DNA of 42,560 nucleotides from Dehalococcoidales bacterium (GTDB lineage Bacteria; Chloroflexota; Dehalococcoidia; Dehalococcoidales; UBA5760). Under the pieces are notes generated by a model. That model saw nothing but the letters and a program-made list of their open reading frames with translations, did no database searches and was not told where the DNA came from. Made by a program: the position numbers and the translations under genes. The stretch lies in the NCBI GenBank assembly GCA_028717305.1, contig JAQUOC010000001.1:1-42560 (forward strand), given 5' to 3'. Below, one piece after another: positions 7,282 through 30,556 of the stretch (position 1 is its first letter; each line of letters starts with the position of its first letter).

Positions 7282-7362
7282 TGTGGTCTTGCTGCTCCTG
7301 AAGGTAATTCTGCGCTATTATAACACCTCCGTCCCAAAAACTGAATGGCACCGGATGCATCT

Positions 7363-8136
7363 TCAGAACCGTACCGGGATTCCTCTTCCGTGCAGGTATT
7401 GCTTGGCTTCTCCGATAGAGTATGTTCCGTAATGGAATATGCTGGCAGCCAGAACCGCGTCTGCTTTGCCTGCCATTAGTACTTGATATAAATCCTCCGG
7501 GTTACCAGCGCCGCCGCTGGCGATAACCGGAACGCTTACTGCCTCTGAGACAGCTCGGGTAAGCTCAATATCATATCCTGCCCGGTGACCGTCGGCATCT
7601 ATGCTGGTGAGCAGTAATTCTCCGGCTCCGAGTATCACCGCATGTCTTGCCCAGTACAGAGCATCGATACCGGTCGATTTCTGGCCACTGTGAGTATAGA
7701 CCTCCCACTTGACCGGTTTGCTCCTGGCTACTTTTTTAGCATCTATTGCCACGACAATGCACTGGCTACCGAATTTATCAGCACTCTCTCTGATGAGTGG
7801 TGGGTTAAGTACCGCTGCGGTATTTATCGAGACCTTATCCGCTCCTGCCAGCAACACTCGCTTTAAGTCATCGATATTACGCAGTCCGCCGCCTACTGTA
7901 AGCGGGATAAACACGTTCCGGGATATGTTCTCAATGACTGCAACGATTGTATCTCGTGCTTCCGGCGTAGCTGCTATGTCCAGAAAAACTAATTCGTCAG
8001 CCTTTTCCTGGTAGTAGAAGTTGGCCAGTTCTACGGCATCGCCGGCATAACGTAAGTCGGTGAAACTCATACCCTTCACTACCCGGTCTCCTTTAAAATC
8101 AAGGCAGGGGATGATCCTTTTTGTCAGCATTGGCAA
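7363..8136 (-). CDS. hisF: imidazole glycerol phosphate synthase, cyclase subunit
   Basis: [20 protein letters not shown]..., TVGGG, ASGGAG blocks. 257 aa. Confidence 0.92.
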
Positions 8137-8165
8137 ATTTCTTCTCCCGCAAAGTTCTGGCTTTT

Positions 8166-8792
8166 CTAGATGTCAAATACCCTATGCGCTAAAGCCAGCT
8201 TTATGAAATTATTGTATATCTTAAGACCTACCTCCCCACTCTTTTCGGGGTGGAACTGGGTTGCTACTAGATTCCCTCTGGTAATTACACTGCAAATTGA
8301 AATACCATACTCTGCCTCGCCGATGACGAGTGATTCATCCTCCGGCCTGGCGTAGTAGCTATGGGCAAAGTAGAAGTTGCTCCTGTTCGGTATACCATCG
8401 AAAATTGGGTGAAGAGACTTCTGATTGACTTGGTTCCAGCCGATTTGGGGAATTTTTACTCCTGGGGAAAGCCGGCGTACTCGTCCGGGAATGATGTCAA
8501 GACACTGCTGTCCTTTGTCTTCTTCGGTATAAGTAAAAAGAAGTTGCATACCGATGCAAATACCCAGGAAAGGGCGGTTGTTTTCGATAAACAAGCGGAG
8601 TGGTGTTATCAATCCTGAAGCCTCCAGATTTTTCATGACATCGCCGGCAGCGCCAACACCGGGAAGAATGATCGCTTCGGCGGTCAGCACATCGCCTGGA
8701 GAGTTGGTCACTATGGCCTGCTGTCCGAGTGTAGAGATGGCATTGAAAACGCTTCTGATATTACCGGCGCCATAGTCAATTATGGTTATCAT
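8166..8792 (-). CDS. hisH: imidazole glycerol phosphate synthase, glutamine amidotransferase subunit
   Basis: [15 protein letters not shown]..., GICIGMQLL (catalytic Cys), FHPEKS. Trimmed from the track start at 8849 to the ATG at 8792. Confidence 0.9.
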
Positions 8793-16819: not shown

Positions 16820-17353
16820 ATGAGTTCTCAAACTGAACCCCGGATACTTTTTACCAGAGGTGAAATAGCGGCTGCTGTAAAGAGACTGTCGGTTCAGCTT
16901 GGCAGAGATTACCGGGGCAGGTGCCCGCTGCTGGTAGGCATCCTTAAAGGTTCCTTTGTCTTCATGGCTGATTTGGTGAGGTCTCTTGATTTTCCGCTTG
17001 AGGTGGAGTTTATCAAGCTCTCCAGCTATGGTCGGGGTAGAGAGAGCTCGGGAAAGGTCAGGGTGGTCAAGGGCCTTACCTCTCTGGTTAAGGGCAGGGA
17101 TGTGCTGGTGGTTGAGGACATCGTAGATACCGGTATTACCCTTTCCTTTCTAATGGACTACCTGAAGAAGAAAAAACCGGCTTCGCTACGGCTCTGTGCT
17201 CTTGCGGATAAGCCATCACGGCGGCGGTTGCCGCTTATCATTGACTATCTGGGCTTTACCGTTCCCGATAGATTTATCGTCGGTTACGGCATAGACTGGG
17301 ATGAGAAGTTTCGTTACCTGCCCGATATCTGCTATCTGGATGATGAGAATTGA
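16820..17353 (+). CDS. hpt: hypoxanthine phosphoribosyltransferase
   Basis: 177 aa. PRPP-binding loop VLVVEDIVDTGITL, plus the LVGILKGSFVFMADL block. Confidence 0.85.
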   Translation: MSSQTEPRILFTRGEIAAAVKRLSVQLGRDYRGRCPLLVGILKGSFVFMADLVRSLDFPLEVEFIKLSSYGRGRESSGKVRVVKGLTSLVKGRDVLVVEDIVDTGITLSFLMDYLKKKKPASLRLCALADKPSRRRLPLIIDYLGFTVPDRFIVGYGIDWDEKFRYLPDICYLDDEN

Positions 17354-17399
17354 CACCGGAAAGTAGACCTGCTGTATTTTCCCGGCTGTATCGAAAGGG

Positions 17400-19115
17400 A
17401 TGAGCTTGAGCAAAGAGCGTTTGATCTCAGTGGCCAGAGGGCAGCTTCCTGCTGACCTTATCCTGGCTAACGGCAGGGTGGTCAATGTCTTCAATGGTGA
17501 GATTGAGTCGACCAATGTGGCTCTCTGCGGTGGCAGGATCGCCGGGATAGGAGACTACTGTGAAGCAAAAGAGGTCATTGATTTAGGGAATAGGTATATT
17601 GTTCCCGGTCTGATTAACGGGCATACTCACCTGGAAAGCTCGATGCTCAGCGTTGATCAGTATGCCCGTGCCGTGGTACCGCGGGGAACGCTGGCGGTGG
17701 TGACCGATCTTCACGAAATAGCTAATGTCTGCGGTCTTAATGGCATCCGGTATGTTCTGGATCGTGCCCGCCGCCTGCCCCTGGAGCTTTTCTTGATGGC
17801 TCCTTCCTGCGTGCCGGCGACTCATCTGGAGACCTCGGGGGCAAACCTTGGGCCTGATGATATTAGAAAAATGCTCCGCTGGCGTGGCTGTATCGGGTTG
17901 GGAGAGGTAATGAACTTCCCCGGCGTGCTGGCCGGTGATGAGAATGTCCTCAAGAAGATCAACTCGGCGGAGGGGAATGTGGTTGACGGCCATGCTCCAG
18001 GCTTGGGCGGCAGGGACTTAAATGCCTATATTACGGCCGGTATTGGTTCCGATCATGAGTCGGTATCTCTCGATGAGGCCGGAGAGAAACTAGGTCGCGG
18101 CATGTACCTTATGATACGCGAGGGGTCCTCGGAGAAGAACCTGGATGCACTACTTCCTCTGGTCAGTGACAGGACCTATCCCCGGTGTCTCTTCGTTGTC
18201 GATGACCGCAACTGTGTCGACCTGCTTGGCGATGGTGATATTGATGCTGTGGTGCGTAAGGCAGTCGGGCGTGGCCTCGACCCGGTGCGGGCGATTCAGA
18301 TGGCGACCATAAATGCCGCGGTATACTTCCGCCTGAGTGGGCTCGGAGCGGTTGCCCCGGGCTACCTGGCCAATCTAATTGTTAGCCAGGAACTGACCGA
18401 CTTGCGGGCGGACATGGTATTCTACCGGGGTACACTTGTGGCTAGGAAGGGAGAACCGCTGTTTGCTATCCGTAAAGAGAGCGGCACGGGACTAAACCAC
18501 ACGGTAAACATTAAGCCCTATGATTTGGAGTCCCTGCGGCTTGTCTCGTCCGGGGATACCGAGCCGGTCATTGAGATTATTCCCGGCCAGATAATTACCC
18601 GGAAAAGGATGGCGCGGGTTACCGCTAGAGAAGGCGTTATTGTGCCGGATAATAAGCGGGATATTCTGAAGCTGGTGGTGGTGGAGAGGCATCGAGCCAG
18701 CGGTAACATCGGACTGGGGCTGGTCAGTGGGTTTGGCCTGAAGAGAGGGGCGCTGGCTTCCTCGATCGCCCACGATTCTCATAACATTGTCTGTGTCGGC
18801 ACTAGCGATGAAGACATATTTATCGCTCTGAAAGAGGTTGAGCGGCTTAACGGCGGTCTGGTGGTGACCGCCGGTGGTGGGGTGCTGGCTAGTCTGCCTC
18901 TCCCGGTAGCAGGTTTACTTTCTGAAGAGCCGCTGGAGGTAGTGGCGGACGGTCTGGAACATCTGGAGCAGCTGGCTGCTGATTTGGGTAGCAGTCTGCC
19001 GTCCCCTTTTGCCGCCCTTTCCTTTCTGGCGCTGCCGGTTATTCCTGAACTCAGGCTGACCGATCTGGGTATGGTCGATGTTCATCAATTCAGGTTGATT
19101 GAGAGGGGGACTTAG
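17400..19115 (+). CDS. ade: adenine deaminase
   Basis: 571 aa. ADLILANGRVVNVFNGEI..., PGLINGHTHLESSM metal-binding motif. Length and C-terminal domain are typical of Ade. Confidence 0.85.
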   Translation: MSLSKERLISVARGQLPADLILANGRVVNVFNGEIESTNVALCGGRIAGIGDYCEAKEVIDLGNRYIVPGLINGHTHLESSMLSVDQYARAVVPRGTLAVVTDLHEIANVCGLNGIRYVLDRARRLPLELFLMAPSCVPATHLETSGANLGPDDIRKMLRWRGCIGLGEVMNFPGVLAGDENVLKKINSAEGNVVDGHAPGLGGRDLNAYITAGIGSDHESVSLDEAGEKLGRGMYLMIREGSSEKNLDALLPLVSDRTYPRCLFVVDDRNCVDLLGDGDIDAVVRKAVGRGLDPVRAIQMATINAAVYFRLSGLGAVAPGYLANLIVSQELTDLRADMVFYRGTLVARKGEPLFAIRKESGTGLNHTVNIKPYDLESLRLVSSGDTEPVIEIIPGQIITRKRMARVTAREGVIVPDNKRDILKLVVVERHRASGNIGLGLVSGFGLKRGALASSIAHDSHNIVCVGTSDEDIFIALKEVERLNGGLVVTAGGGVLASLPLPVAGLLSEEPLEVVADGLEHLEQLAADLGSSLPSPFAALSFLALPVIPELRLTDLGMVDVHQFRLIERGT

Positions 19116-21948: not shown

Positions 21949-22482
21949 TTACTTTGAAGGTTCACAAACGTATTCCTCAATCAGTGTCCAAGAACCACCA
22001 TTGATTAAGCTTTCATTAATCAATTTCACAGAATGCGGGTCTGTTATATCCCAAATCATTCGCAGTTGGGCTGCAATCCTATCAGGATTAGTATACGCTT
22101 CTGATGTTTGAATAAATTTATCACCTATGATCTCGCCGTTTAAAACAGCACTACCACCACGACTATCGGCTGCGAAAGCACGATAACGCTTGGTGAAAAA
22201 ATCTCAGCCAGCTACATAGTGGCATTTCCAAGTTATAACTTTTTTATCACCAATGAATTGATCTTGCTCAAAATTACCAATTACCCATAGATCATTTATA
22301 GCCCATTCAAAAGTGCCCTTGCCTTTGGCTAACATCTCTGGTGATCCAGGTCCTATTCATTTTCTTTCACCTTTCCTGTCCAAGTACAGTTAACATGGAA
22401 ATGTTTTGGTGCCTCTGTTTCTTGTCCAAGGCGGGTGATTTGTGGCTTCCAAAGTTTTTTCCACAGAAGTTGTACCTCCTCT
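21949..22482 (-). pseudogene. decayed DUF1579-like gene (in-frame TGA plus at least one frameshift)
   Basis: My reverse-strand translation gives GPGSPEMLAKGKGTFEWAINDLWVIGNFEQDQFIGDKKVITWKCHYVAG*DFFTKRYRAFAADSRGGSAVLNGEIIGDKFIQTSEAYTNPDRIAAQLRMIWDITDPHSVKLINESLINGGSWTLIEEYVCEPSK. The stop (22204-22206) falls where the family normally has an aromatic residue in G(W/Y)D. The N-terminal part is in another frame upstream of ~22355, and GAGGAGG lies at ~22475-22482. Confidence 0.5.
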
Positions 22483-22721
22483 AGTTAAATTAACCAGCAT
22501 TATAAAATATTGACTAACTCAGATAGTCGCACTTCTCGGAGATGTTTCACCTTGTCCATCGAGTAACGAAAGGAGAAGCAGTACTGGAAGCCACGATAAG
22601 GAATATCCTGTCAAAGTTTGACTATGCTATATACGGACCGCTATGAACAACCGGGAGAGGCCTCTCACGAGAGCTACTCTAGTTCAGTTATTTTTCTCAT
22701 ACTGATAGTGAGGTATGCCCG

Positions 22722-23591
22722 TTAGTTCTTCCCGATTCCAGTAGGTGTATTTCCGAAATATACTTTAGTATGTGGCCAGGGAATCTCAATCCCTTCCTGA
22801 TCAAACCTGTCTTTGAGCTTCTTACGTAGCTCCCCCATCAAACCCCACTGTTTTATTGGTTTTGTATCAGCCAGGATTTTGATTTCGATACCACTATCCC
22901 CTAAATTATCCACCCTCTCGGCATGAGGAGCTGTTAGTAGATCTTGTCCGAATACCGGATCTTCCTTCATTTCCTTGCCTACTTCGTTGATGACACTGAA
23001 CACCTTGCTTAAGTTTTCATTATAGGAAACGCTTATATTGAGATTTACTCTTGACCAATCCCTGGTCATATTGCTTGCCAACTCGATTTTGCCGTTTGGA
23101 ATTACATGCATTGTGCCATTGAGATCTCGGAGTATAGTGCGTCGTAGACTTATGTTCTCAACAAGACCACCGATACCGGCGACGTTAGCCACTTCCCCAA
23201 TCCTGTACCAATCCTCCATTATAATAAAGAAACCATGCAAATAATCCCGGATTATGTTTTGTGCCGCAAGTCCGATTGCGAGACTAGCCACTCCTACTGT
23301 AGCTAGTATGGGGGTTATGTTGACTCCTACTACACTCAAAATCATAATACCGGCAATAATCCATATTATTACCGTGGCAAACTGAACAATAACCTGAGAT
23401 AATGTTTTGGAACGAGAAGCAAGTTGGTCTGGCGACTCTTCACGGATCTTAGGAATTCGCGTACAAATAATTTTCGGGACAAGTTTCTTAATAGCCAGCA
23501 TGATTATTAGCGCGATTACAGCGATTATCCCCGCTTTTATAGCTCCAGCAACAAATGGGGTGAAGTTTGAGGTGAAATCTAAATTGATCAT
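22722..23591 (-). CDS. MscS-family mechanosensitive ion channel
   Basis: N-terminal TM helices followed by the MscS beta-domain block (YRIGEVANVAGIGGLVENISLRRTILRDLNGTMHVIPNG). Start trimmed to the ATG at 23591, 6 nt after GGAGG. Confidence 0.8.
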   Translation of the reverse strand: MINLDFTSNFTPFVAGAIKAGIIAVIALIIMLAIKKLVPKIICTRIPKIREESPDQLASRSKTLSQVIVQFATVIIWIIAGIMILSVVGVNITPILATVGVASLAIGLAAQNIIRDYLHGFFIIMEDWYRIGEVANVAGIGGLVENISLRRTILRDLNGTMHVIPNGKIELASNMTRDWSRVNLNISVSYNENLSKVFSVINEVGKEMKEDPVFGQDLLTAPHAERVDNLGDSGIEIKILADTKPIKQWGLMGELRKKLKDRFDQEGIEIPWPHTKVYFGNTPTGIGKN

Positions 23592-23786
23592 CAAAAACCT
23601 CCATGTACGCTTTGCTTTCAGGTTCATGCCGTAGGGATGCTGCTTCAAGAAGAACAACGTTTATGCAATCCTGAAAAGTATGTTCCCCACACTTTCCAGG
23701 GTCGTGTTCAGTTTGTCGGATTTAGTAAGTTACCGGGTATATATAATCATTCCCGGAATATACCATAGTGAGAAGTGAGAACGATT

Positions 23787-23992
23787 ATGATTACGATAAG
23801 CAGGGTAACTCTGTTGGTCCAGCTTGAAATAATCTGGTGCAACTGAACGAATCCAACATCAAATCGGCTATTGAAATACTAGCGCAGGTATTCCAGAATT
23901 ATCCGCTGCTCCAGTACACTGTACCTAACGAATCTAAGGTGGTGCTTATTGATTACCATGGTTTATTTCTCGGAATAGATGATTGCTCGTGA
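23787..23992 (+). pseudogene. possible N-terminal fragment of an acetyltransferase-like gene (frameshifted, truncated)
   Basis: MITISRVTLLVQLEIIWCN* switches frame near 23837 to VQLNESNIKSAIEILAQVFQNYPLLQYTVPNESKVVLIDYHGLFLGIDDCS*. The resemblance to GNAT N-termini is weak. Confidence 0.25.
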
Positions 23993-24111
23993 ACAAATAA
24001 TCTGTCCGATACTCCTGACATTGTGCTGAAGCTTCAGTCATAAATTACCATCCGTTGCTGTGAAGCTACCTTACGATTAAACCTTATTAGCTTGAGTCTC
24101 TCCTGAATTAG

Positions 24112-24405
24112 CTAATCATTGCTGTCATTTCCCTTTTCTTTGCTAACAACCAATTCCGGCCCATCAGCAGTATCTTGAACATCGAGAGTAACCCCATCAA
24201 GCACAGGATTTAGCTCTGATGCTACCAGCAATACCCTGGTTCCTTCATGTTCCACCACGTGGTCATTTTCTAGCTCATTTCCCAGCTTAAGCCCGAGTTG
24301 GCCACCTGGCCCCATCGATAGCCTCAGGCTGATCTCTGGATCGTCACTATGAAGCTGTAGGGTGTTTTTCAGCAATTGCTTGGCACTTTCAGTTACAACT
24401 AACAT
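24112..24405 (-). CDS. small IscA/HesB-fold-like protein lacking all Cys ligands (paralogue A)
   Basis: 97 aa with AGGAGG before the ATG. It aligns by eye to IscA (VVTESAKQLLKNTL / SLRLSMGPGGQLGLKLGNELENDHVVEHEGTRVLLVASELNPVLDGVTLDV) but contains no cysteine. It is a paralogue of 26168-26434. Confidence 0.55.
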   Translation of the reverse strand: MLVVTESAKQLLKNTLQLHSDDPEISLRLSMGPGGQLGLKLGNELENDHVVEHEGTRVLLVASELNPVLDGVTLDVQDTADGPELVVSKEKGNDSND

Positions 24406-24566
24406 TTATACCTCCTTTTGCTTTTATGAAACGTTGGTTAAATTATTCCTTAGAAGTATGATAGGGTCACGACTGCATATGGGCTATGGCCGGCCCTGTG
24501 GTACTCGACTGCTATAACGATAATATTATAGGCTCGTAATCGCTGGTGAATATCCAGTGATGATTT

Positions 24567-24782
24567 TTACGTCTCTTGATCTACGTCGACATTAACGTTG
24601 ACCTTAGTATCAGTTACCTTGATAATATCTTTCGGTGATAAGAAGAGAGCATCTACAGCGCTGTTTCTATGAATAACAATTTTTCTTGGTTCTCCAGTAT
24701 AGACGTCATTTATGACCTGACTGACTGTGCCTAGAACACGGCCATTGTTGCCTATTACCTCAGCCCCACATTGTATCTCCAT
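24567..24782 (-). CDS. small PRC-barrel/DUF2171-like protein (paralogue A)
   Basis: 71 aa, MEIQCGAEVIGNNGRVLGTVSQVINDVYTGEPRKIVI... This matches the PRC-barrel pattern (short beta strands, xG-x-V-x-D/N-G-x-x-G-x-V). It is a paralogue of 25921-26127. Confidence 0.5.
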   Translation of the reverse strand: MEIQCGAEVIGNNGRVLGTVSQVINDVYTGEPRKIVIHRNSAVDALFLSPKDIIKVTDTKVNVNVDVDQET

Positions 24783-25088
24783 TCCTACGTTTACCTTCCT
24801 AAGAAAGATTATATTAGCCTCAGATCTTATAATAGAATTCTAACTTACCCCGACGTGGTAGTCATTCTACACTCGAGTTATTTAGTTGGAGAAAAAGGGT
24901 TATGTTGTGCTAACCATTTTGGCTGTTGTTCGCTTAATACCTGTTGTCAATGGAATATGAAATGCTTATAGCCATGTTATCGCAGCTTGATTTCTCAGGC
25001 GGGCTGGGTTCCGCAAATAGCCATTAGAATGTTGTTACTGTTATAATTACGGTTGGATTGTTTAACTAATATAGGACGAAGGCAGAAG

Positions 25089-25766
25089 ATGACCGAAACA
25101 GATAAGATTAGTATTCTTTTGATTGATGACAAAGAGGTCTTTCGTGAAGGTTTGGCGAGAATTCTGGATGAGCAGGGTGATATTGAGGTTGTCTATCAGT
25201 GCTCAAGCCTGGGCTCACTCGATAGAATTCAGGTTACAAAACCTCAGTTGGTCTTGCTAAGCAGCACGCTCTCAGATCCTGATTGTAATGAACTGGCTGA
25301 AAAAATTATCGAACTTGTTCCTGATATAAAGATCGCAATACTGGGTGCTTCCGAGTCTGGAGACGGTCTTTATGATGCTATGGAAGCAGGTGCCAGTGGA
25401 TACCTTATGAAGGACATGAAACTAGATGACCTACTTAAGTCCATTAGCTTGGTGGCCAAAGGAGAGGTGGTTGTCTCGGCGCCATTAGCAAAAAAACTCA
25501 TAGACGAGTTCGGTGACCTTAGGAGTAGTAGTAAGTCTGGTTATGAAGAGAATCTTTCCGAGAGAGAGTTAGAGATATTAAAACTACTGGGTAAAGGGAT
25601 CACAAATAGGGAGATAGCCGAAACACTTTTTATTACAGAAAATACGGCGAAGGTGCATGTGAAGAATATTCTGGATAAGTTGCGGCTGCGTAACCGTCAG
25701 CAAGCAGCAGCCTATGCTGTGCAACAGGGCTTGATTTCCGATATAAGAGGCTCGGCAGAGGTCTAA
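25089..25766 (+). CDS. NarL/FixJ (LuxR-HTH) family response regulator with non-canonical receiver
   Basis: Receiver domain (ISILLIDDKEVFREGL...GYLMKD) plus a C-terminal LuxR HTH (LSERELEILKLLGKGITNREIAETLFITENTAKVHVKNILDKL). The position that aligns with the phospho-acceptor Asp is Ser (LVLLSS, codon 25260-25262). Confidence 0.85.
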   Translation: MTETDKISILLIDDKEVFREGLARILDEQGDIEVVYQCSSLGSLDRIQVTKPQLVLLSSTLSDPDCNELAEKIIELVPDIKIAILGASESGDGLYDAMEAGASGYLMKDMKLDDLLKSISLVAKGEVVVSAPLAKKLIDEFGDLRSSSKSGYEENLSERELEILKLLGKGITNREIAETLFITENTAKVHVKNILDKLRLRNRQQAAAYAVQQGLISDIRGSAEV

Positions 25767-25805
25767 CAAGAACGATCAAACTACACAATCTCGCTCAAAT
25801 TACCA

Positions 25806-25838
25806 AAAGGGCTATCGTAAGATAGCCCTTTTTCTCTT
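25806..25838 (+). terminator. rho-independent terminator after the response regulator gene
   Basis: AAAGGGCTATC-gtaa-GATAGCCCTTT followed by TTCTCTT. Confidence 0.75.
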
Positions 25839-25920
25839 ATAGAATACTTCTGATTTAGCATGTTTCTTTAAATTAGGTGATTCTATAATAAATGTGGATT
25901 TATTACAAGGAGGTGCTCAC

Positions 25921-26127
25921 ATGCATATAGAGTGTGGTAATAAGGCAGTCGATAAGAATAATAGATTTGTAGGTAAGGTTGAAAAAGTAATATTGAATTT
26001 GCTTACCGGTGAAATTGCATACTTCTTTGTTAGGGATGAGAATGCGCAACGGAACGTTCTCTACAGACCTGAAGATGTCGCGAAGTTGTCATCGGGAAAA
26101 GTAAAACTCAAATTTTCGGCTAGTTAG
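25921..26127 (+). CDS. small PRC-barrel/DUF2171-like protein (paralogue B)
   Basis: MHIECGNKAVDKNNRFVGKVEKVILNLLTGEIAYFFV... AGGAGG lies 8 nt before the ATG at 25921; the track GTG at 25894 was trimmed. Confidence 0.5.
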   Translation: MHIECGNKAVDKNNRFVGKVEKVILNLLTGEIAYFFVRDENAQRNVLYRPEDVAKLSSGKVKLKFSAS

Positions 26128-26167
26128 GCTCATAAACGGCAAAACAGATTTGGGAGGAAAAGGTATC

Positions 26168-26434
26168 GTGATCGAAGTAACTGATAAGGCCAGGGCACTC
26201 TTGGAGGATGTGTTGGCCAGGAGCGTAAGTGACCCGGAACTAACCCTGAGGATGGTCGCTCAGGGTGATGGCAAATTGAGACTGGTGCCGGACAGGAGCA
26301 GGAATTCTGATCAAGTGGTCGTAAAGGATGGTAGGGTAATACTACTGGTAGGGCAGGAACTTGCTCCTATACTGGACCGTTTGACCCTCGATGTAAAGGA
26401 AACGGAAAATGGATCAAAATTTTCCATGACATAA
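26168..26434 (+). CDS. small IscA/HesB-fold-like protein lacking Cys ligands (paralogue B)
   Basis: (M)IEVTDKARALLEDVL...LTLRMVAQGDGKLRLVPDRSRNSDQVVVKDGRVILLVGQELAPILDRLTLDV. I chose the GTG at 26168, 10 nt after GGGAGG, by analogy with paralogue A. The TTG at 26150 is possible. Confidence 0.5.
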   Translation: MIEVTDKARALLEDVLARSVSDPELTLRMVAQGDGKLRLVPDRSRNSDQVVVKDGRVILLVGQELAPILDRLTLDVKETENGSKFSMT

Positions 26435-26543
26435 TTTATTCTCAGATAAAAACTATCTTGAATACTATAGGTGCACAAAGCAATAAGCTCAGGGAGCTAA
26501 GATATTTTTGGGGGAGAGTTGGTAATGTTAAACATTACGAGTT

Positions 26544-27332
26544 CTATGATATATTCTCTTGTTTTAAAAAATCAACCGGCACGTCAGCATTTTTCCGACA
26601 GATAATAGTGAAGTAGTAAAGGGGATTCCCCTCAATTGATAAGCGATGTCTATAGCGCTCCAAATGATTGATTTTCAAGAACTCAAAGAATATTAACTCT
26701 CTGATAAGTTTAGAGAAGCCAGTTATATCCGTATTATAAAAAAAAGTTTCCTTTATGTTGAATGCCACCCATCCTTCATTATCGATTAAATTAAGTGCCT
26801 GAACAAAAGCTTTGGTGGGGATATCTCCAAAACCTAGAGCGGCAACAGTTACTAATGCGTTGAGATTCCAGGACTTAATCTCTTCTATGTCATTGCCGCC
26901 TAAATTAGTAAAATCTTTAACGTAGTACTGATCATATATACCAGGCCGATCTCTTTCCGCTGCATTTTTTGCCTCTTCCAGAATATCCACGCCAATAAGT
27001 CGAGCAACCCCGATTTTCTTTAGTTCTTCCCCCATCATCCCATTTCCGGCTCCAAAGTCGAGGACTTTCATTGTAGAGAAGTAATCGTTATTAATCTCGA
27101 TAGTGTATTTCAATGCGTTCGCGACTTTCTGGGGAGAGCAGCATTTCAGCCTGTCATAATAAAGCTGTTCATAAAGTCCCGGGTTATCATAAATCTTGCC
27201 GTAATCGTGGAACATTATTTTTTCTACATTATCCTCTGTTTTCAAGTAAAAAAAGGCTTCATCCTGATTCAAATCACTGGTATCAATTCTAGGAAATTGG
27301 ATGTTATGTTTATCCACAGTTCCCCCTTTCAT
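26544..27332 (-). CDS. class I SAM-dependent methyltransferase
   Basis: Motif I VLDFGAGNGMMGEEL, followed by an acidic post-I residue (GVDILEEA). Confidence 0.75.
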   Translation of the reverse strand: MKGGTVDKHNIQFPRIDTSDLNQDEAFFYLKTEDNVEKIMFHDYGKIYDNPGLYEQLYYDRLKCCSPQKVANALKYTIEINNDYFSTMKVLDFGAGNGMMGEELKKIGVARLIGVDILEEAKNAAERDRPGIYDQYYVKDFTNLGGNDIEEIKSWNLNALVTVAALGFGDIPTKAFVQALNLIDNEGWVAFNIKETFFYNTDITGFSKLIRELIFFEFLKINHLERYRHRLSIEGNPLYYFTIICRKNADVPVDFLKQENIS

Positions 27333-27485
27333 TATTCGATTTTAGCCCTATTTTGGGACATATTTCTGCATTATACGAATCCGAGCTTAACTTAATGGCT
27401 ATGGCTATTATATCACTGATTCATACAATGAACACTCGCTTAGATTGTGCCAAAGGTCTCTTGGGATACCTGAATTGATCGTTAG

Positions 27486-27503
27486 ACAAAGATGACAATT
27501 GTG
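27486..27503. repeat. copy 2 of the 18-nt direct repeat ACAAAGATGACAATTGTG
   Basis: Identical to 21681-21698. Flanking similarity extends 5' (tgatcGTTAg versus tcattGTTAc). Confidence 0.8.
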
Positions 27504-27687
27504 CAGCTACCCGGACAAAACCAGTCTTGAGCACAAAGCTCGGCATTCAGTTGTAGGTACGATGATTTGATAGGCTTATGGCAGGATGTTAGACTACTAA
27601 GGTAAGGATTATAGGGTACTTTTCCCTGAATTTGGTGACTATTTCCCCATCTGCATTATTGAAAGAGGATGATAAAGCAGCAATGGT

Positions 27688-29076
27688 ATGAACAGAAGAG
27701 AATATATAGCTAGTATAGTGGTTACTATGGCAGGCATAATGGCCTTGTTAATTGCGGGTGTGCTTTTCCAGGAGAAGGGAGCTACAACTGCCGCGGAGCA
27801 GCATCTTCGTCCGAAAGAATGGACGGACGAAACTCACGGTAATGGTGTAGAACCGAACTATGAAATTGTTTTCCCTCAAGATAAGGTTAATCAGATGAAG
27901 ATCACTATTGCTCCGAATGATTGGGAAGCAATGCAGGCAGATCTGACCGAGCTATTAGGTACCCGTGGAACCGGACGCCAAGTTAACGTGAAACCGGAGA
28001 ATCTTATCTGGGTCCCGGCTACCATCGAATTCAACGGCTTGATTTGGAACCACGTTGGTATCCGCTATAAAGGCGCCTCAACACTTATAGACAGCTGGGG
28101 CGGGGGCATGCGGAAAATACCTTTAAGATTCAACTCCGATAAGTTTGAGGATAAATATCCTGAAATCACAAACCAGCGGTTCTACGGCTTCAAGAAGCTG
28201 ACGATGGCAAATTCCATGTTTGACAGCAGTTATATGCGTGACATAATTGCGGCCGACCTTCTGGCAGAGGCAGGGCTGCCAGTTGCCCGGACTGCGTATT
28301 ATGAAATCATCATGGACTATGGTGAAGGTCCGGTTGACTTTGGTTTGTATGTGGTAATAGAGAGCATCGAGGATACAGTCATCGAGCGTTATTTTGGTGA
28401 TAAGTCCGGGAATATCTACAAGCCAGAAGGTGGTGGGGCCAGCCTGGCAGAGGGCACATTCGGTTGGATTCAGCACGGCTTCGTAAAGAAAAACAACGAG
28501 ATCGAGGCCGACTGGAGTGACATCGAAACTCTGTACAACTTACTCCACTCGGAAGGACGCATCTCGGATCCTGAAGCTTGGCGGGAAAGCCTGGAATCGA
28601 TATTCAACGTAGACGTCTTCCTTGAGTGGCTGGCCATCAGTACTATCATCCAGCACTGGGATAGCTATGGTGTCATGCCGAATAATTTCTACCTCTATAA
28701 TGATCCTGACACCGGTCTGCTTACCTGGATATCCTGGGACCACGATGTTATCTTAGGCATCGGTGACGAGATGATAAGCGACGCGTCTCTGGGAAAGAAG
28801 GAGATAGGTCAGGACTGGCCGCTGATTCGCTACCTGCTGGATGATCCAACCTACTACGACCGATACCTGGATTATATTAATGAAACTATTAATGGGCCGT
28901 TCGATCCGGGCAAACTGGAGGTGAAGTGCCGGGCATTGGCGGAATTGATCAACCCTTATGTTGTCGAAGAATCAAGTGAGGCTGCCTTCAACTGGGCTGT
29001 CAAGCAATTGATTGACCGTATTCACTCGCGTTATGAGGTAGCAATTGATTTTCTTACTGATGAGAGAGGCGGTTAA
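27688..29076 (+). CDS. CotH-family protein (atypical kinase fold) with N-terminal membrane anchor
   Basis: 462 aa. N-terminal hydrophobic segment IASIVVTMAGIMALLIAGVLF. CotH-like blocks (KKLTMANSMFDSSYMRD, NFYLYNDPDTGLLTWISWDHD). Confidence 0.78.
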   Translation: MNRREYIASIVVTMAGIMALLIAGVLFQEKGATTAAEQHLRPKEWTDETHGNGVEPNYEIVFPQDKVNQMKITIAPNDWEAMQADLTELLGTRGTGRQVNVKPENLIWVPATIEFNGLIWNHVGIRYKGASTLIDSWGGGMRKIPLRFNSDKFEDKYPEITNQRFYGFKKLTMANSMFDSSYMRDIIAADLLAEAGLPVARTAYYEIIMDYGEGPVDFGLYVVIESIEDTVIERYFGDKSGNIYKPEGGGASLAEGTFGWIQHGFVKKNNEIEADWSDIETLYNLLHSEGRISDPEAWRESLESIFNVDVFLEWLAISTIIQHWDSYGVMPNNFYLYNDPDTGLLTWISWDHDVILGIGDEMISDASLGKKEIGQDWPLIRYLLDDPTYYDRYLDYINETINGPFDPGKLEVKCRALAELINPYVVEESSEAAFNWAVKQLIDRIHSRYEVAIDFLTDERGG

Positions 29077-29077
29077 G

Positions 29078-29857
29078 ATGACGACTCAAGTATATGATGG
29101 TGTGTTGGCTGATAATATCGACGTATTGCCAGAGAGGTTTGAGCGTAAATATTACTTGGTAGCTGGAGAAGTCGGCTTAGCTTACGGTCTTCTACGCCAT
29201 CTTTGTCTTTCGGCCAGTGAGTATCCCTCCGAGCAGATAAACAGTCTTTACTTTGATACGGCCGGACTGGAACAGCATGAAAGGTCTGCTGCCGGTGACT
29301 ATAACAAAGATAAGGTACGTATCCGTTGGTATGGTGAGGATAATGATATCAGTGGAATGCGTAATGTGTTCATTGAACTGAAATCAAGGCGGGGTTTTAC
29401 CAGTACCAAGCAACGGCTAAAGTTATCTGTGTCAGCCATGAGTTTGAATCCGGGTAATCTTATCAGGGGTATTGTTCCCAGAACCCTGCTGATGGATACC
29501 CTGGCCAGATTTGGCTGTTTCCCGCACGAGATGCTTCATCCGGTAATCAAGATATCTTACTGGCGCCGTCGTTTTAGCGAGATTCTGACCGGGCAACGAG
29601 TTTCGCTTGATTGTCATATTCGTTCTTCGATGGTAATGCCGGGAAGAGGTAATGGTGAAAAGGAGCTAGAGTTACCCGGCGGTGTTATCGAGATTAAAGG
29701 ATTGGCTATGGATCTACCTCCCAGTTTAAGCCGAATGAGGATGTTATATTTAGATTGGACCAGATTCTCCAAGTATTCCTCATGTATCGATTCTCACCTT
29801 GAGGAGCCCGGATCTATGGGACGCCTGTCACCGTCAGGGAGAATAACCCAACTATAG
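29078..29857 (+). CDS. VTC-domain (polyphosphate-polymerase/triphosphate-tunnel-like) protein
   Basis: RFERKYYL..., INSLYFDT..., DKVRIRWYGE..., VFIELKSRRG...K.R. matches the bacterial VTC domain pattern. The ATG at 29078 lies 1 nt after the cotH stop. Confidence 0.72.
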   Translation: MTTQVYDGVLADNIDVLPERFERKYYLVAGEVGLAYGLLRHLCLSASEYPSEQINSLYFDTAGLEQHERSAAGDYNKDKVRIRWYGEDNDISGMRNVFIELKSRRGFTSTKQRLKLSVSAMSLNPGNLIRGIVPRTLLMDTLARFGCFPHEMLHPVIKISYWRRRFSEILTGQRVSLDCHIRSSMVMPGRGNGEKELELPGGVIEIKGLAMDLPPSLSRMRMLYLDWTRFSKYSSCIDSHLEEPGSMGRLSPSGRITQL

Positions 29858-29896
29858 TCAGATATGATAACATGGTAATACTATTAGGAGGAATAA

Positions 29897-30556
29897 ATGC
29901 CAGAAGGATTTGATCTATTTGCTTCCTTACCGGAGATGAAAGAAACCATTATACCCCTCGGATTCTCCGTGCTGGGTGCTGTCATTACCTATTTAGTATA
30001 TAATCTGTTTTATGGTTCAAGTCATATCGGGGCCGGTGTACATCGTACCTTTCTTGTCGGTGGCCCCGTTATCACAATGATATTCCTGGTTATCCAAACC
30101 TCTATACCACTCGGTCTTGGACTGCTCGGAGCGCTTGCCATAGTGCGTTTCCGAACGCCGGTAAAAGATCCGGCCGAGATAGGATTCTTGCTTCTGTTGA
30201 TTGCTTCCTCACTTGGAGCCGCTACCAGTAACTACCTGATAACTGCTTTAATGTTTATTATTGTCTTTGCTGCTCTAGGGGTACATAGGTTAATAAGCAA
30301 TCGGATTACTCTCTTGGGAAGAGGACATCTGATGATCGCTGTTGACCGAGGTACTTTTCCATCAATAGAGAAGAAACTGATGGCCTTACTCTCGGAGAAG
30401 CTTCGAGGCTTGAATCTGGAGACTATATCCACGATTGATAATCGGGTTAGCTTAAATTATCAATACAAACGTCGGGCAGATTTCGACTGGTCGGCTTTTA
30501 TAAATGAGTTAAACCAGCTTGCAGGGGGGCCGGGGATTGAGATTTTCGTGAGCTAA
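29897..30556 (+). CDS. DUF4956 membrane protein
   Basis: Multi-TM protein with the block GALAIVRFRTPVKDPAEIGFLLLLIASSLGAA, characteristic of DUF4956. AGGAGG precedes the ATG. Confidence 0.72.
   Translation: MPEGFDLFASLPEMKETIIPLGFSVLGAVITYLVYNLFYGSSHIGAGVHRTFLVGGPVITMIFLVIQTSIPLGLGLLGALAIVRFRTPVKDPAEIGFLLLLIASSLGAATSNYLITALMFIIVFAALGVHRLISNRITLLGRGHLMIAVDRGTFPSIEKKLMALLSEKLRGLNLETISTIDNRVSLNYQYKRRADFDWSAFINELNQLAGGPGIEIFVS

Follow-up and report, generated by a model that had tools for sequence, protein, structure and literature searches.

The locus at positions 24112 to 26434 of contig JAQUOC010000001.1 of a Dehalococcoidales bacterium (assembly GCA_028717305.1; the window, i.e. the whole stretch of DNA that was analysed, comprises 42,560 nucleotides) raises the question why a regulator gene is flanked on both sides by the same kind of small gene pair in mirror-image order, and what these genes might do. 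A preliminary description of this DNA had reported two diverged pairs of genes for a PRC-barrel protein (PRC-A, PRC-B) and an IscA-like protein (ISC-A, ISC-B), both transcribed outward from the regulator gene. The open reading frames (ORFs) were found where they had been placed, with ISC-A and PRC-A pointing to the left, the regulator gene, PRC-B and ISC-B pointing to the right, and the PRC gene first in both arms. Comparison with other genomes shows that the locus is a compact, rearranged form of a gene island which is conserved in uncultured Dehalococcoidia. This finding, combined with the assumption that the regulator controls a set of small protein-binding proteins, is our best overall explanation, and we give it an even chance of being correct. 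The features of the module are as follows.

24112..24405, minus strand: ISC-A, a 97-amino-acid (aa) cysteine-less, C-terminally truncated protein of the IscA (A-type carrier) fold, isoelectric point (pI) 4.4

24406..24566, minus strand: spacer between PRC-A and ISC-A, 161 nt, with a weak promoter-like site at 24470-24442

24567..24782, minus strand: PRC-A, a 71-aa stand-alone PRC-barrel protein, pI 4.8

24837..24865, minus strand: putative PRC-A promoter from a promoter scan (-35-like ATGACT at 24865-24860, 17 nt, -10 box TAGAAT at 24842-24837), within the conserved island box

24893..24920, minus strand: decayed copy of the island palindrome, AAAATGGTTAGCACAACATAACCCTTTT in PRC-A orientation

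25018..25047, plus strand: promoter-like site before the regulator gene (TAGCCA-18-TATAAT with TG), from a consensus scan only

25089..25766, plus strand: regulator of the NarL/FixJ type (receiver domain, REC, plus LuxR/GerE helix-turn-helix, HTH), with an alternative start TTG at 25053

25805..25832, plus strand: intact copy of the island palindrome and probable intrinsic terminator, AAAAGGGCTATC-GTAA-GATAGCCCTTTT followed by TCTCTT

25884..25889, plus strand: -10 box TATAAT of the putative PRC-B promoter, read from the sequence

25921..26127, plus strand: PRC-B, a 68-aa stand-alone PRC-barrel protein, pI 9.5, with a longer ORF start at 25894

26168..26434, plus strand: ISC-B, an 88-aa cysteine-less IscA-fold protein, with a longer ORF start at 26150

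The ATG of ISC-A (24405), the ATG of PRC-B (25921) and the GTG of ISC-B (26168) are preceded by the Shine-Dalgarno sequences GGAGG, AGGAGG and GGGAGG, respectively; a plausible Shine-Dalgarno sequence is also present for PRC-A, and the likely start of the regulator gene is the ATG at 25089. In comparison to close relatives from other samples, the ratio of nonsynonymous to synonymous substitution rates (dN/dS) was 0.22–0.40 for ISC-A, 0.24–0.33 for PRC-A, 0.10 for the regulator and 0.10–0.31 for ISC-B, and it was 0.13–0.15 for PRC-B in comparison to its orthologues in L055 and L062 (loci fetched for this analysis are designated by L numbers). Because these ratios lie between 0.10 and 0.40 for all five genes, the genes are judged to be real and under purifying selection, and a reading of the small genes as chance ORFs is ruled out. 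ISC-A and ISC-B share 39% identical amino acids (E 3e-18) and PRC-A and PRC-B share 30% (E 2e-11). All sequence motifs previously listed for the two kinds of paralogues were found in the translations, and the paralogy of both gene pairs is far beyond chance.

Through the ISC proteins, 43 loci were fetched from the genome collection. Twenty-three of them belong to Chloroflexota/Dehalococcoidia and 20 to other groups (Rokubacteria, Rubrobacter and other Actinomycetota, one member of the Thermotogae, one of the Sphingomonadaceae, and Jeotgalibacillus). Beside ISC, eight of the 23 loci from Chloroflexota carry a PRC gene of this subfamily, and seven of these eight also contain a close orthologue of the regulator (at least 195 bits); among the 20 loci of the other groups such a PRC gene was not present. 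In the reverse test, with metagenome contigs fetched through PRC, an ISC gene occurred within 3 kb in 13 of the 18 loci that extend at least 3 kb downstream, and a regulator orthologue in 18 of the 29 loci that extend at least 1.7 kb upstream.

The canonical form of the island reads in one direction. It begins with the response regulator (RR) gene, followed by genes for an SRPBCC protein, PRC, a Zn-ribbon protein, a sigma factor, an 87-aa protein and a further Zn-ribbon protein, and then by ISC, a small protein, another two to three ISC and two further small proteins. Each island carries two to five ISC paralogues, and the small proteins which it encodes are cytoplasmic. The sigma factor of the full-size islands is short (310 aa) and RpoD-like (RpoD_Cterm, 359.8 vs 354 bits) and resembles RpoS and the actinobacterial SigB, i.e. 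group-2 sigma factors. Its gene lies, for example, at L074:5401-6333 between a Zn-ribbon gene and the ISC paralogues, and it was also found in L080, L084, L087, L097, L111, L103 and L094. From the reduced module of the window the sigma factor gene is absent; only the regulator gene, two PRC genes and two ISC genes of the island are kept. Direct adjacency of PRC and ISC is the minority arrangement (L001/L008, L098, L113, L126 and the close relatives of the window). The pairing proposed earlier holds insofar as both genes are adjacent in other genomes and the regulator co-occurs, but PRC and ISC do not form an autonomous two-gene unit and are instead part of an RR/sigma island. In one metagenome-assembled genome (MAG), binchicken_co9_185, two complete islands running from RR, SRPBCC and PRC to ISC were detected on separate contigs (L011, L017), with at least eight ISC paralogues.

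The one-directional order of the canonical island bears directly on the mirror layout, which could be without any functional meaning, that is, a by-product of inversion and gene loss with the two arms being independent, redundant paralogue operons. The mirror form was found only in the lineage of the window, namely in the window itself and in L055, where RR and PRC-B point to one side and PRC-A and ISC-A to the other; looser divergent variants occur in L020 and L104. In L062, another close relative, the genes for RR, PRC-B, a truncated extra ISC paralogue and ISC-B follow each other in one direction. This extra paralogue (L062:1182-1421, 79 aa) is similar to the first ISC of canonical islands (E 2e-16), and at the same position in the window PRC-B and ISC-B are separated by a gap of 40 nt only. 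Furthermore, the B arm has been disrupted by insertion sequence (IS) elements in L058-L060, where PRC-B/ISC-B are cut off from their upstream side by an IS21 element and followed downstream by a transposase of the rve family; in L059 the island palindrome is located just upstream of the IS21 insertion. The IS21 element (transposase plus IstB) is accompanied by a PRiA4-like gene directly upstream of PRC-B/ISC-B (L058:1325-4112, L059:579-3366, L060). On the other side, both arms are under purifying selection in several relatives. It had been claimed that both copies have been maintained, and each arm indeed has orthologues with 70–90% identity in other samples (72–85% for ISC-B), and the mirror order recurs in L055. 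The argument concerns only the symmetry and is compatible with our explanation of the locus as a rearranged island under the control of its regulator. A meaningless mirror layout is a real possibility, although we lean somewhat against it.

A recent inverted duplication as the origin of the two arms is ruled out, in agreement with the preliminary description, because the paralogues are only 30–39% identical and ISC-A and ISC-B belong to different old clades; a long inverted DNA repeat between the arms was likewise not found. In a neighbour-joining tree, ISC-A groups with the best-conserved ISC of canonical islands, and ISC-B stands alone on a long branch in a clade apart from ISC-A. According to this tree, ISC-A and the best-conserved ISC of the canonical islands are orthologues, and ISC-B is an old, divergent paralogue.

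A conserved regulatory region, which the preliminary description does not mention, lies in front of the PRC genes. Downstream of the island regulator gene, a non-coding region of about 90 nt is conserved nearly base for base, where the proteins are only about 50% identical (e.g. L074:4114-4210 and about 40 other loci; window copies 25805-25889 and 24837-24920); no Rfam match was obtained for it. This region consists of CCAAAAGGGTTATC-N4-GATAACCCTTTT, about 13 nt, CCTAAATAACTCAGATGCAGTATGTC (which ends with the -35-like ATGTCA), 17 nt and TAGAAT. The consensus of its palindrome in canonical islands is GGGTTATC-N4-GATAACCC (also written AAAAGGGTTATC-N4-GATAACCCTTTT). In 40 of the 130 fetched loci there is precisely one match per locus to the pattern GGGYTATCN4GATARCCC, and the palindrome is located directly 3' of the regulator gene wherever the fetched contig includes that gene. 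Across 21 sequences, 98.4% of the cells are paired, six of the 12 pairs are invariant and two pairs show compensatory changes.

Of the two copies in the window, the intact one at 25805-25832 is a symmetric C/G variant, with a predicted RNA fold of -18.5 kcal/mol (z -6.5) and a subsequent T-run, and it was also picked up by a terminator scan; it is the probable terminator of the regulator gene and, judged from its sequence, a candidate operator. The decayed copy at 24893-24920 has three mismatches to the above pattern and folds weakly (-5 kcal/mol), and this decay in the A arm would fit a mirror layout that arose as a by-product. A local alignment of 34 nt between the two copies scored 33, compared to 17.6 +/- 2.3 for shuffled sequences, and this regulatory segment upstream of both PRC genes is the sole significant DNA similarity between the arms. 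A multiple alignment places the PRC-A promoter in phase with the conserved promoter that follows the RR gene in 18 other loci. Both window regions keep the register of the canonical regions as far as the -10 box, where the TATAAT of PRC-B aligns with the TAGAAT of the island. A conserved promoter in register in both arms argues against a mirror layout without function. By alignment, each arm comprises palindrome, conserved promoter, PRC and ISC, with the canonical region being present in inverted form in the A arm.

The palindrome is more invariant than a terminator needs to be, and therefore a protein-binding site is suggested. The obvious candidate for the binding partner would be the dimer of the LuxR-type HTH protein that is encoded directly upstream. 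We propose that a dimer of the regulator binds the palindrome, the centre of which lies about 65–70 nt upstream of the -10 box, and thereby controls both arms; the intact copy downstream of the regulator gene would drive PRC-B and ISC-B, and the decayed, inverted copy upstream would drive PRC-A and ISC-A.

Regarding the regulator, GerE (6.8e-19) and Response_reg (2.7e-13) domains were detected with Pfam. The best full-length model was NarL (9.8e-42, below its equivalog cut-off), with MadR also among the best. The protein had been called an orphan regulator of the LuxR type. The LuxR HTH is indeed present and no kinase was found, but it is not a bare LuxR protein; it is a response regulator with a degenerate receiver. 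In comparison to NarL, the phospho-acceptor D59 is replaced by Ser and S87 by Gly, with the acidic pair DD and the Lys being retained. The orthologue in L062 also carries Ser at the acceptor position. Most other orthologues retain the Asp, which is lost only in the window lineage (Ser) and in L016 (Gly). Neither the window nor the other island loci yielded a kinase (HisKA_3) homologue in a phmmer search, which is of limited sensitivity, with the catalytic half of the L001 kinase. Because the acceptor is Ser and a kinase is not found nearby, the regulator in the window lineage would have to act without phosphorylation. By sequence, the regulator and its relatives are a distinct orthologue group that is specific for Dehalococcoidia.

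A regulator without its acceptor Asp and without a kinase might receive its input in another way. It is conceivable that ISC and/or PRC bind the regulator or the island sigma factor as co-activators, anti-activators or parts of a partner-switching system and thus replace the phosphorylation input. The small genes always adjoin the regulator gene and, in canonical islands, the sigma factor gene, and DsrR, another IscA-fold protein, is implicated in the control of dsr gene expression (PMC11406059). Against this proposal, most regulator orthologues retain the Asp despite having the same neighbours, some ISC genes lie far away from any regulator of this kind, and two to five ISC paralogues per island are many for one regulatory target. 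We consider it unlikely.

The IscA-like proteins show weak but real similarity to A-type carriers. With Pfam Fe-S_biosyn (PF01521), ISC-A reached 16.6 bits and ISC-B 20.8 bits (4.6e-4), both below the cut-off of 26.3 bits, and with TIGR00049 both reached about 19 bits (cut-off 58.8). Structure models were made with AF2 for ISC-A and, on the PRC side, for PRC-A. In a Foldseek search, the model of ISC-A (pLDDT 82) matched SufA/IscA structures (2d2a, 1s98, 1x0g, 1r94; E 1.5e-5 to 7.6e-5, TM 0.6–0.7), which supports the predicted IscA fold despite the profile scores below cut-off. It also matched DsrR (2k4z; E 1.4e-3, TM 0.59) and YneR/PdhI (9a4q_B; TM 0.55). When a profile of the ISC family was compared to the sequences in the PDB, Aquifex IscA was obtained at E 0.003; at E ≤ 1, only this protein and HI1723 were found, and neither 2k4z nor 9a4q.

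Neither ISC-A nor ISC-B contains any cysteine, as reported before. In a profile alignment to E. coli IscA (72 columns), Cys35 is replaced by Gln (or Lys), and the C-terminal CGC is replaced by a short acidic tail. The motif which defines A-type carriers is Cys-Xn-Cys-X-Cys (PMC7144353). Because this triad is absent from both proteins and throughout the family, the earlier view that they are not Fe-S carriers like IscA is well founded. Homologues of ISC-A (63 at 53–90% identity, all of about 90 aa) originate from metagenomes or MAGs of Dehalococcoidales, and several of them were automatically named 'Fe-S cluster assembly iron-binding protein IscA' by JGI. In a profile search of 1.84 billion representatives, clustered at 50% identity, the family comprised 632 clusters at E ≤ 1e-10 and 1834 clusters at E ≤ 1e-3. 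Among 203 family members of about 90 aa, 115 lack any cysteine, only two have a CxC near the C-terminus, and the alignment contains no conserved Cys column. Conserved positions are T5, A8, L12, R28, D48, L59, D75 and G82, of which L12, R28, D48 and D75 align with identical residues in E. coli IscA. From these comparisons, the ISC family is a cysteine-less, C-terminally truncated offshoot of the A-type carriers and is best described as an independent, much larger cysteine-less branch of the IscA fold.

Two other interpretations of ISC-related sequences were discarded. The NCBIfam model IscA_HesB_Se was the best model, but in the comparison with HesB-like selenoproteins (NF038090, TIGR01911) the score was 25.9 bits against a cut-off of 85 bits; read-through at a selenocysteine codon does not apply, because the stop codons of the ISC ORFs are TAG and TAA, and an in-frame TGA is not present. 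The matches in Jeotgalibacillus are not orthologues of YneR but cysteine-containing IscA-like genes in ars operons. There, the IscA-like gene follows arsD and arsA (L047:7883-10291, L048:7384-10288) and encodes a GCG loop and a C-terminal Cys-Cys; it represents a different, cysteine-containing offshoot of the fold.

ISC might still handle metal or Fe-S clusters, either with carboxylate and His ligands (D-Q-V-V-E-H-E) or with a cluster that is bridged together with the Cys of PRC. In its fold and its conserved structural residues the family agrees with IscA, JGI names several members accordingly, GDQVVEHEG is conserved to more than 90% in the ISC-A clade with its Asp (D48) being invariant in the whole family, and PRC-A and PRC-B each contain one Cys in the common motif M-x-I-x-C-G. 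The missing triad speaks against this, and so do several further observations: the E-H-E residues are not present in ISC-B (DQVVVKDG), the invariant Asp has a structural role in true IscA as well, the PRC Cys is replaced by Y or F in the wider PRC set, and isc, suf or nif genes were not seen beside the island in the neighbourhoods inspected. A role in metal or cluster handling is accordingly regarded as highly improbable.

It is more probable that the ISC proteins function as small protein-binding adaptors or inhibitors in the manner of PdhI/YneR and DsrR. The PRC proteins would be partner-binding or oligomerising modules. PRC-A exceeds the gathering cut-off of Pfam PRC (PF05239) with 23.5 bits (cut-off 21.2), and PRC-B, its paralogue, is just below it with 20.2 bits. 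The AF2 model of PRC-A (pLDDT 86) is a six-stranded PRC barrel and matches known PRC barrels (MTH1859 1pm3, 8onw, RC-H, 3htr) with TM 0.68–0.77; the matches include the CdpB1/CdpB2 heterodimer of A. fulgidus, a Rhodopseudomonas PRC protein and CdvA. The PRC fold named in the preliminary description is thus supported by profile and model. The acidic PRC-A (pI 4.8) and the basic PRC-B (pI 9.5) might form a heterodimer, as CdpB1 and CdpB2 do.

CetZ counts as an archaeal protein, and in archaea PRC barrels have a role in division. CetZ-like tubulin genes (Tubulin 2.4e-29, CetZ_C 5.4e-15) were detected inside or beside the island in contigs of Dehalococcoidia (L020:651-1808, 7290-8540 and 17074-18255; also L022, L094 and L096) and are absent from the window. 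In view of these genes, the PRC proteins, with ISC as partners, might act in division or cell shape like CdpB1/2/3 and CdvA and together with the CetZ-like tubulins. CdpB1/CdpB2 and CdvA belong to the best structural matches, the opposite charges of PRC-A and PRC-B are compatible with a heterodimer, and CdpB proteins are division factors which bind SepF (bioRxiv 10.1101/2023.03.28.534520). These matches are at the level of the fold only (13–22% identity), and RC-H, MTH1859 and the Rhodopseudomonas PRC protein match equally well. Moreover, CetZ-like genes occur in only four fetched loci, SepF or FtsZ genes were not seen in the loci, and most islands possess a single PRC gene. A function in division is therefore very unlikely.

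Taken together, the module is most likely a regulator-controlled set of small protein-binding proteins for a stress or stationary-phase programme. The group-2 sigma factor of the canonical islands would point in this direction. A hint at an osmotic programme may be seen in some neighbours: a gene of the trehalose-6-phosphate synthase family follows PRC-A and ISC-A at L051:1290-2756, an MscS channel gene follows them in the window (22722-23657), and a Band_7 gene is flanked by two DUF5752-like genes for proteins of 101 aa (L004:5429-7184). Genes of this kind relate to osmotic or membrane stress, and each was observed in no more than one or two loci.

Several points weigh against this explanation. 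Every functional step is derived from fold, precedent or gene neighbourhood. The osmotic hint is weak because such neighbours are single cases in three loci, with MscS and OtsA homologues in one locus each. The palindrome may only be a good intrinsic terminator, since the two compensatory pairs suit an RNA hairpin as well as an operator, and with a single copy of the palindrome per island it is not possible to demonstrate a regulon. PRC and ISC do not necessarily interact, because many genomes, both from other Dehalococcoidia and from other phyla, contain ISC genes on their own, without PRC or the regulator. Finally, the kinship of the ISC family to DsrR or YneR does not exceed that to true IscA, and the analogy to adaptors therefore rests on an independent loss of the cysteines.

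A more far-reaching version of our explanation is possible but rather doubtful. It would describe a system found throughout the Dehalococcoidia, in which a kinase-less response regulator, together with the group-2 sigma factor in full-size islands, switches on small proteins by means of a dedicated palindromic operator, and in which a cysteine-stripped and multiplied IscA fold was repurposed for inhibitors or adaptors with a PRC partner. If this holds true, the small proteins might shut down key enzymes or remodel an FtsZ-less machinery of division or shape during stress or dormancy.

Some further observations concern the surroundings of the module. The spacer between PRC-A and ISC-A shows no significant RNA structure (z +0.34), although its length is kept in the relatives L051-L054. 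An Rfam scan of positions 23600-27000 gave matches below threshold only, on the terminator hairpin, and none in the spacer; an interpretation as riboswitch or small RNA was dropped. An origin from a defence system or a phage was also dismissed, as PADLOC and PHROGs gave no meaningful match for the four small proteins. The module together with the MscS gene and a SAM-methyltransferase gene (window 22000-28000) has a G+C content of about 41%, compared to 50–55% in the preceding 20 kb, and may be an acquired or a fast-evolving segment. Downstream of the module (window 27688-30556), co-directional genes for a CotH kinase-like protein (9.7e-54), a VTC-domain protein and a DUF4956 protein were identified; this cluster is not kept beside the island in other loci.

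In a literature search that included Dehalococcoidia and Dehalococcoides, no publication was found on the ISC family or its combination with PRC, and none on the RR/sigma island or the palindrome, which is in line with the earlier remark that a function for this pairing has not been described. The constituent folds, the regulator family and cysteine-less IscA-fold proteins with roles apart from Fe-S clusters (DsrR, PdhI/YneR) are already known. The island is thus a real, conserved and uncharacterised system of an uncultured lineage, the function of which is wholly inferred. Dehalococcoidia are slow-growing anaerobes that occur in high abundance in marine and subsurface sediments devoid of oxygen, and most of them have not been cultured. 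To our knowledge, almost nothing is known about the regulation of stress or growth arrest in these bacteria, and the island offers a compact, conserved handle on their regulation with a single regulator, a DNA element that hardly varies and a defined group of small proteins. There is also a consequence for annotation. At least about 630 clusters are automatically named 'Fe-S cluster assembly protein IscA' or are unnamed, yet they lack any cluster ligand; metabolic reconstructions should not count ISC proteins as factors of Fe-S biogenesis.

Among known systems, IscA, SufA, ErpA and HesB (PF01521) are related to ISC by fold and by their weak sequence similarity. ISC possesses their structural residues (Asp in D-x-V-x-E, LD in the last strands) but lacks all three cluster-ligating cysteines, scores below the cut-offs, has no isc or suf context and occurs with two to five paralogues per island. 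The degenerate A-type domain of NfuA, a further precedent, has lost a ligating cysteine and does not bind the cluster itself (PMC8593673). In contrast to ISC, which stands alone and has no Nfu partner, this domain is joined to an Nfu domain that binds the cluster, and it serves in Fe-S delivery.

PdhI/YneR of Bacillus subtilis is a cysteine-less inhibitor with the IscA fold which occludes the active site of PdhA-PdhB, the E1 component of pyruvate dehydrogenase (PMC10090944). Like ISC it is a small, stand-alone and cysteine-less protein, and it works by binding of a partner, but a specific sequence kinship to ISC is not seen and pdh genes are absent from the island loci inspected. DsrR likewise has the IscA fold without functional cysteines, and its role is described as regulatory and not as that of a carrier (Grimm et al. 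2010, cited after PMC11406059); it is encoded in the dsr operon, mainly in Pseudomonadota. Again, ISC shows no specific sequence kinship to it, and dsr genes were not found in the neighbourhoods inspected. If the proposed function of ISC is correct, the family would be the third, independent and much larger reuse of the A-type carrier fold apart from Fe-S clusters, after DsrR and PdhI/YneR.

A published survey of 1675 neighbourhoods of archaeal PRC genes contains no mention of an IscA/HesB-like gene in its text. CdpB1, CdpB2, MTH1859 and the Firmicute proteins YlmC and YmxH are single-domain PRC barrels of about 70 aa, like the PRC proteins described here (TM 0.68–0.73 to 1pm3 and 8onw), and JGI gives one PRC homologue the name 'sporulation protein YlmC with PRC-barrel domain'. 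The two PRC paralogues in one locus recall the CdpB1/CdpB2 heterodimer; the identity to stand-alone PRC proteins is only 13–22%, however, and a context of SepF, FtsZ or sporulation genes is missing here.

Atypical regulators of the NarL/FixJ family likewise combine REC with a LuxR HTH. Regulators without an acceptor Asp or a kinase are known, e.g. those of the BldM/WhiI type, HP1043 and ChxR. The group to which the regulator of the window belongs differs from these in being tied to a unique palindrome.

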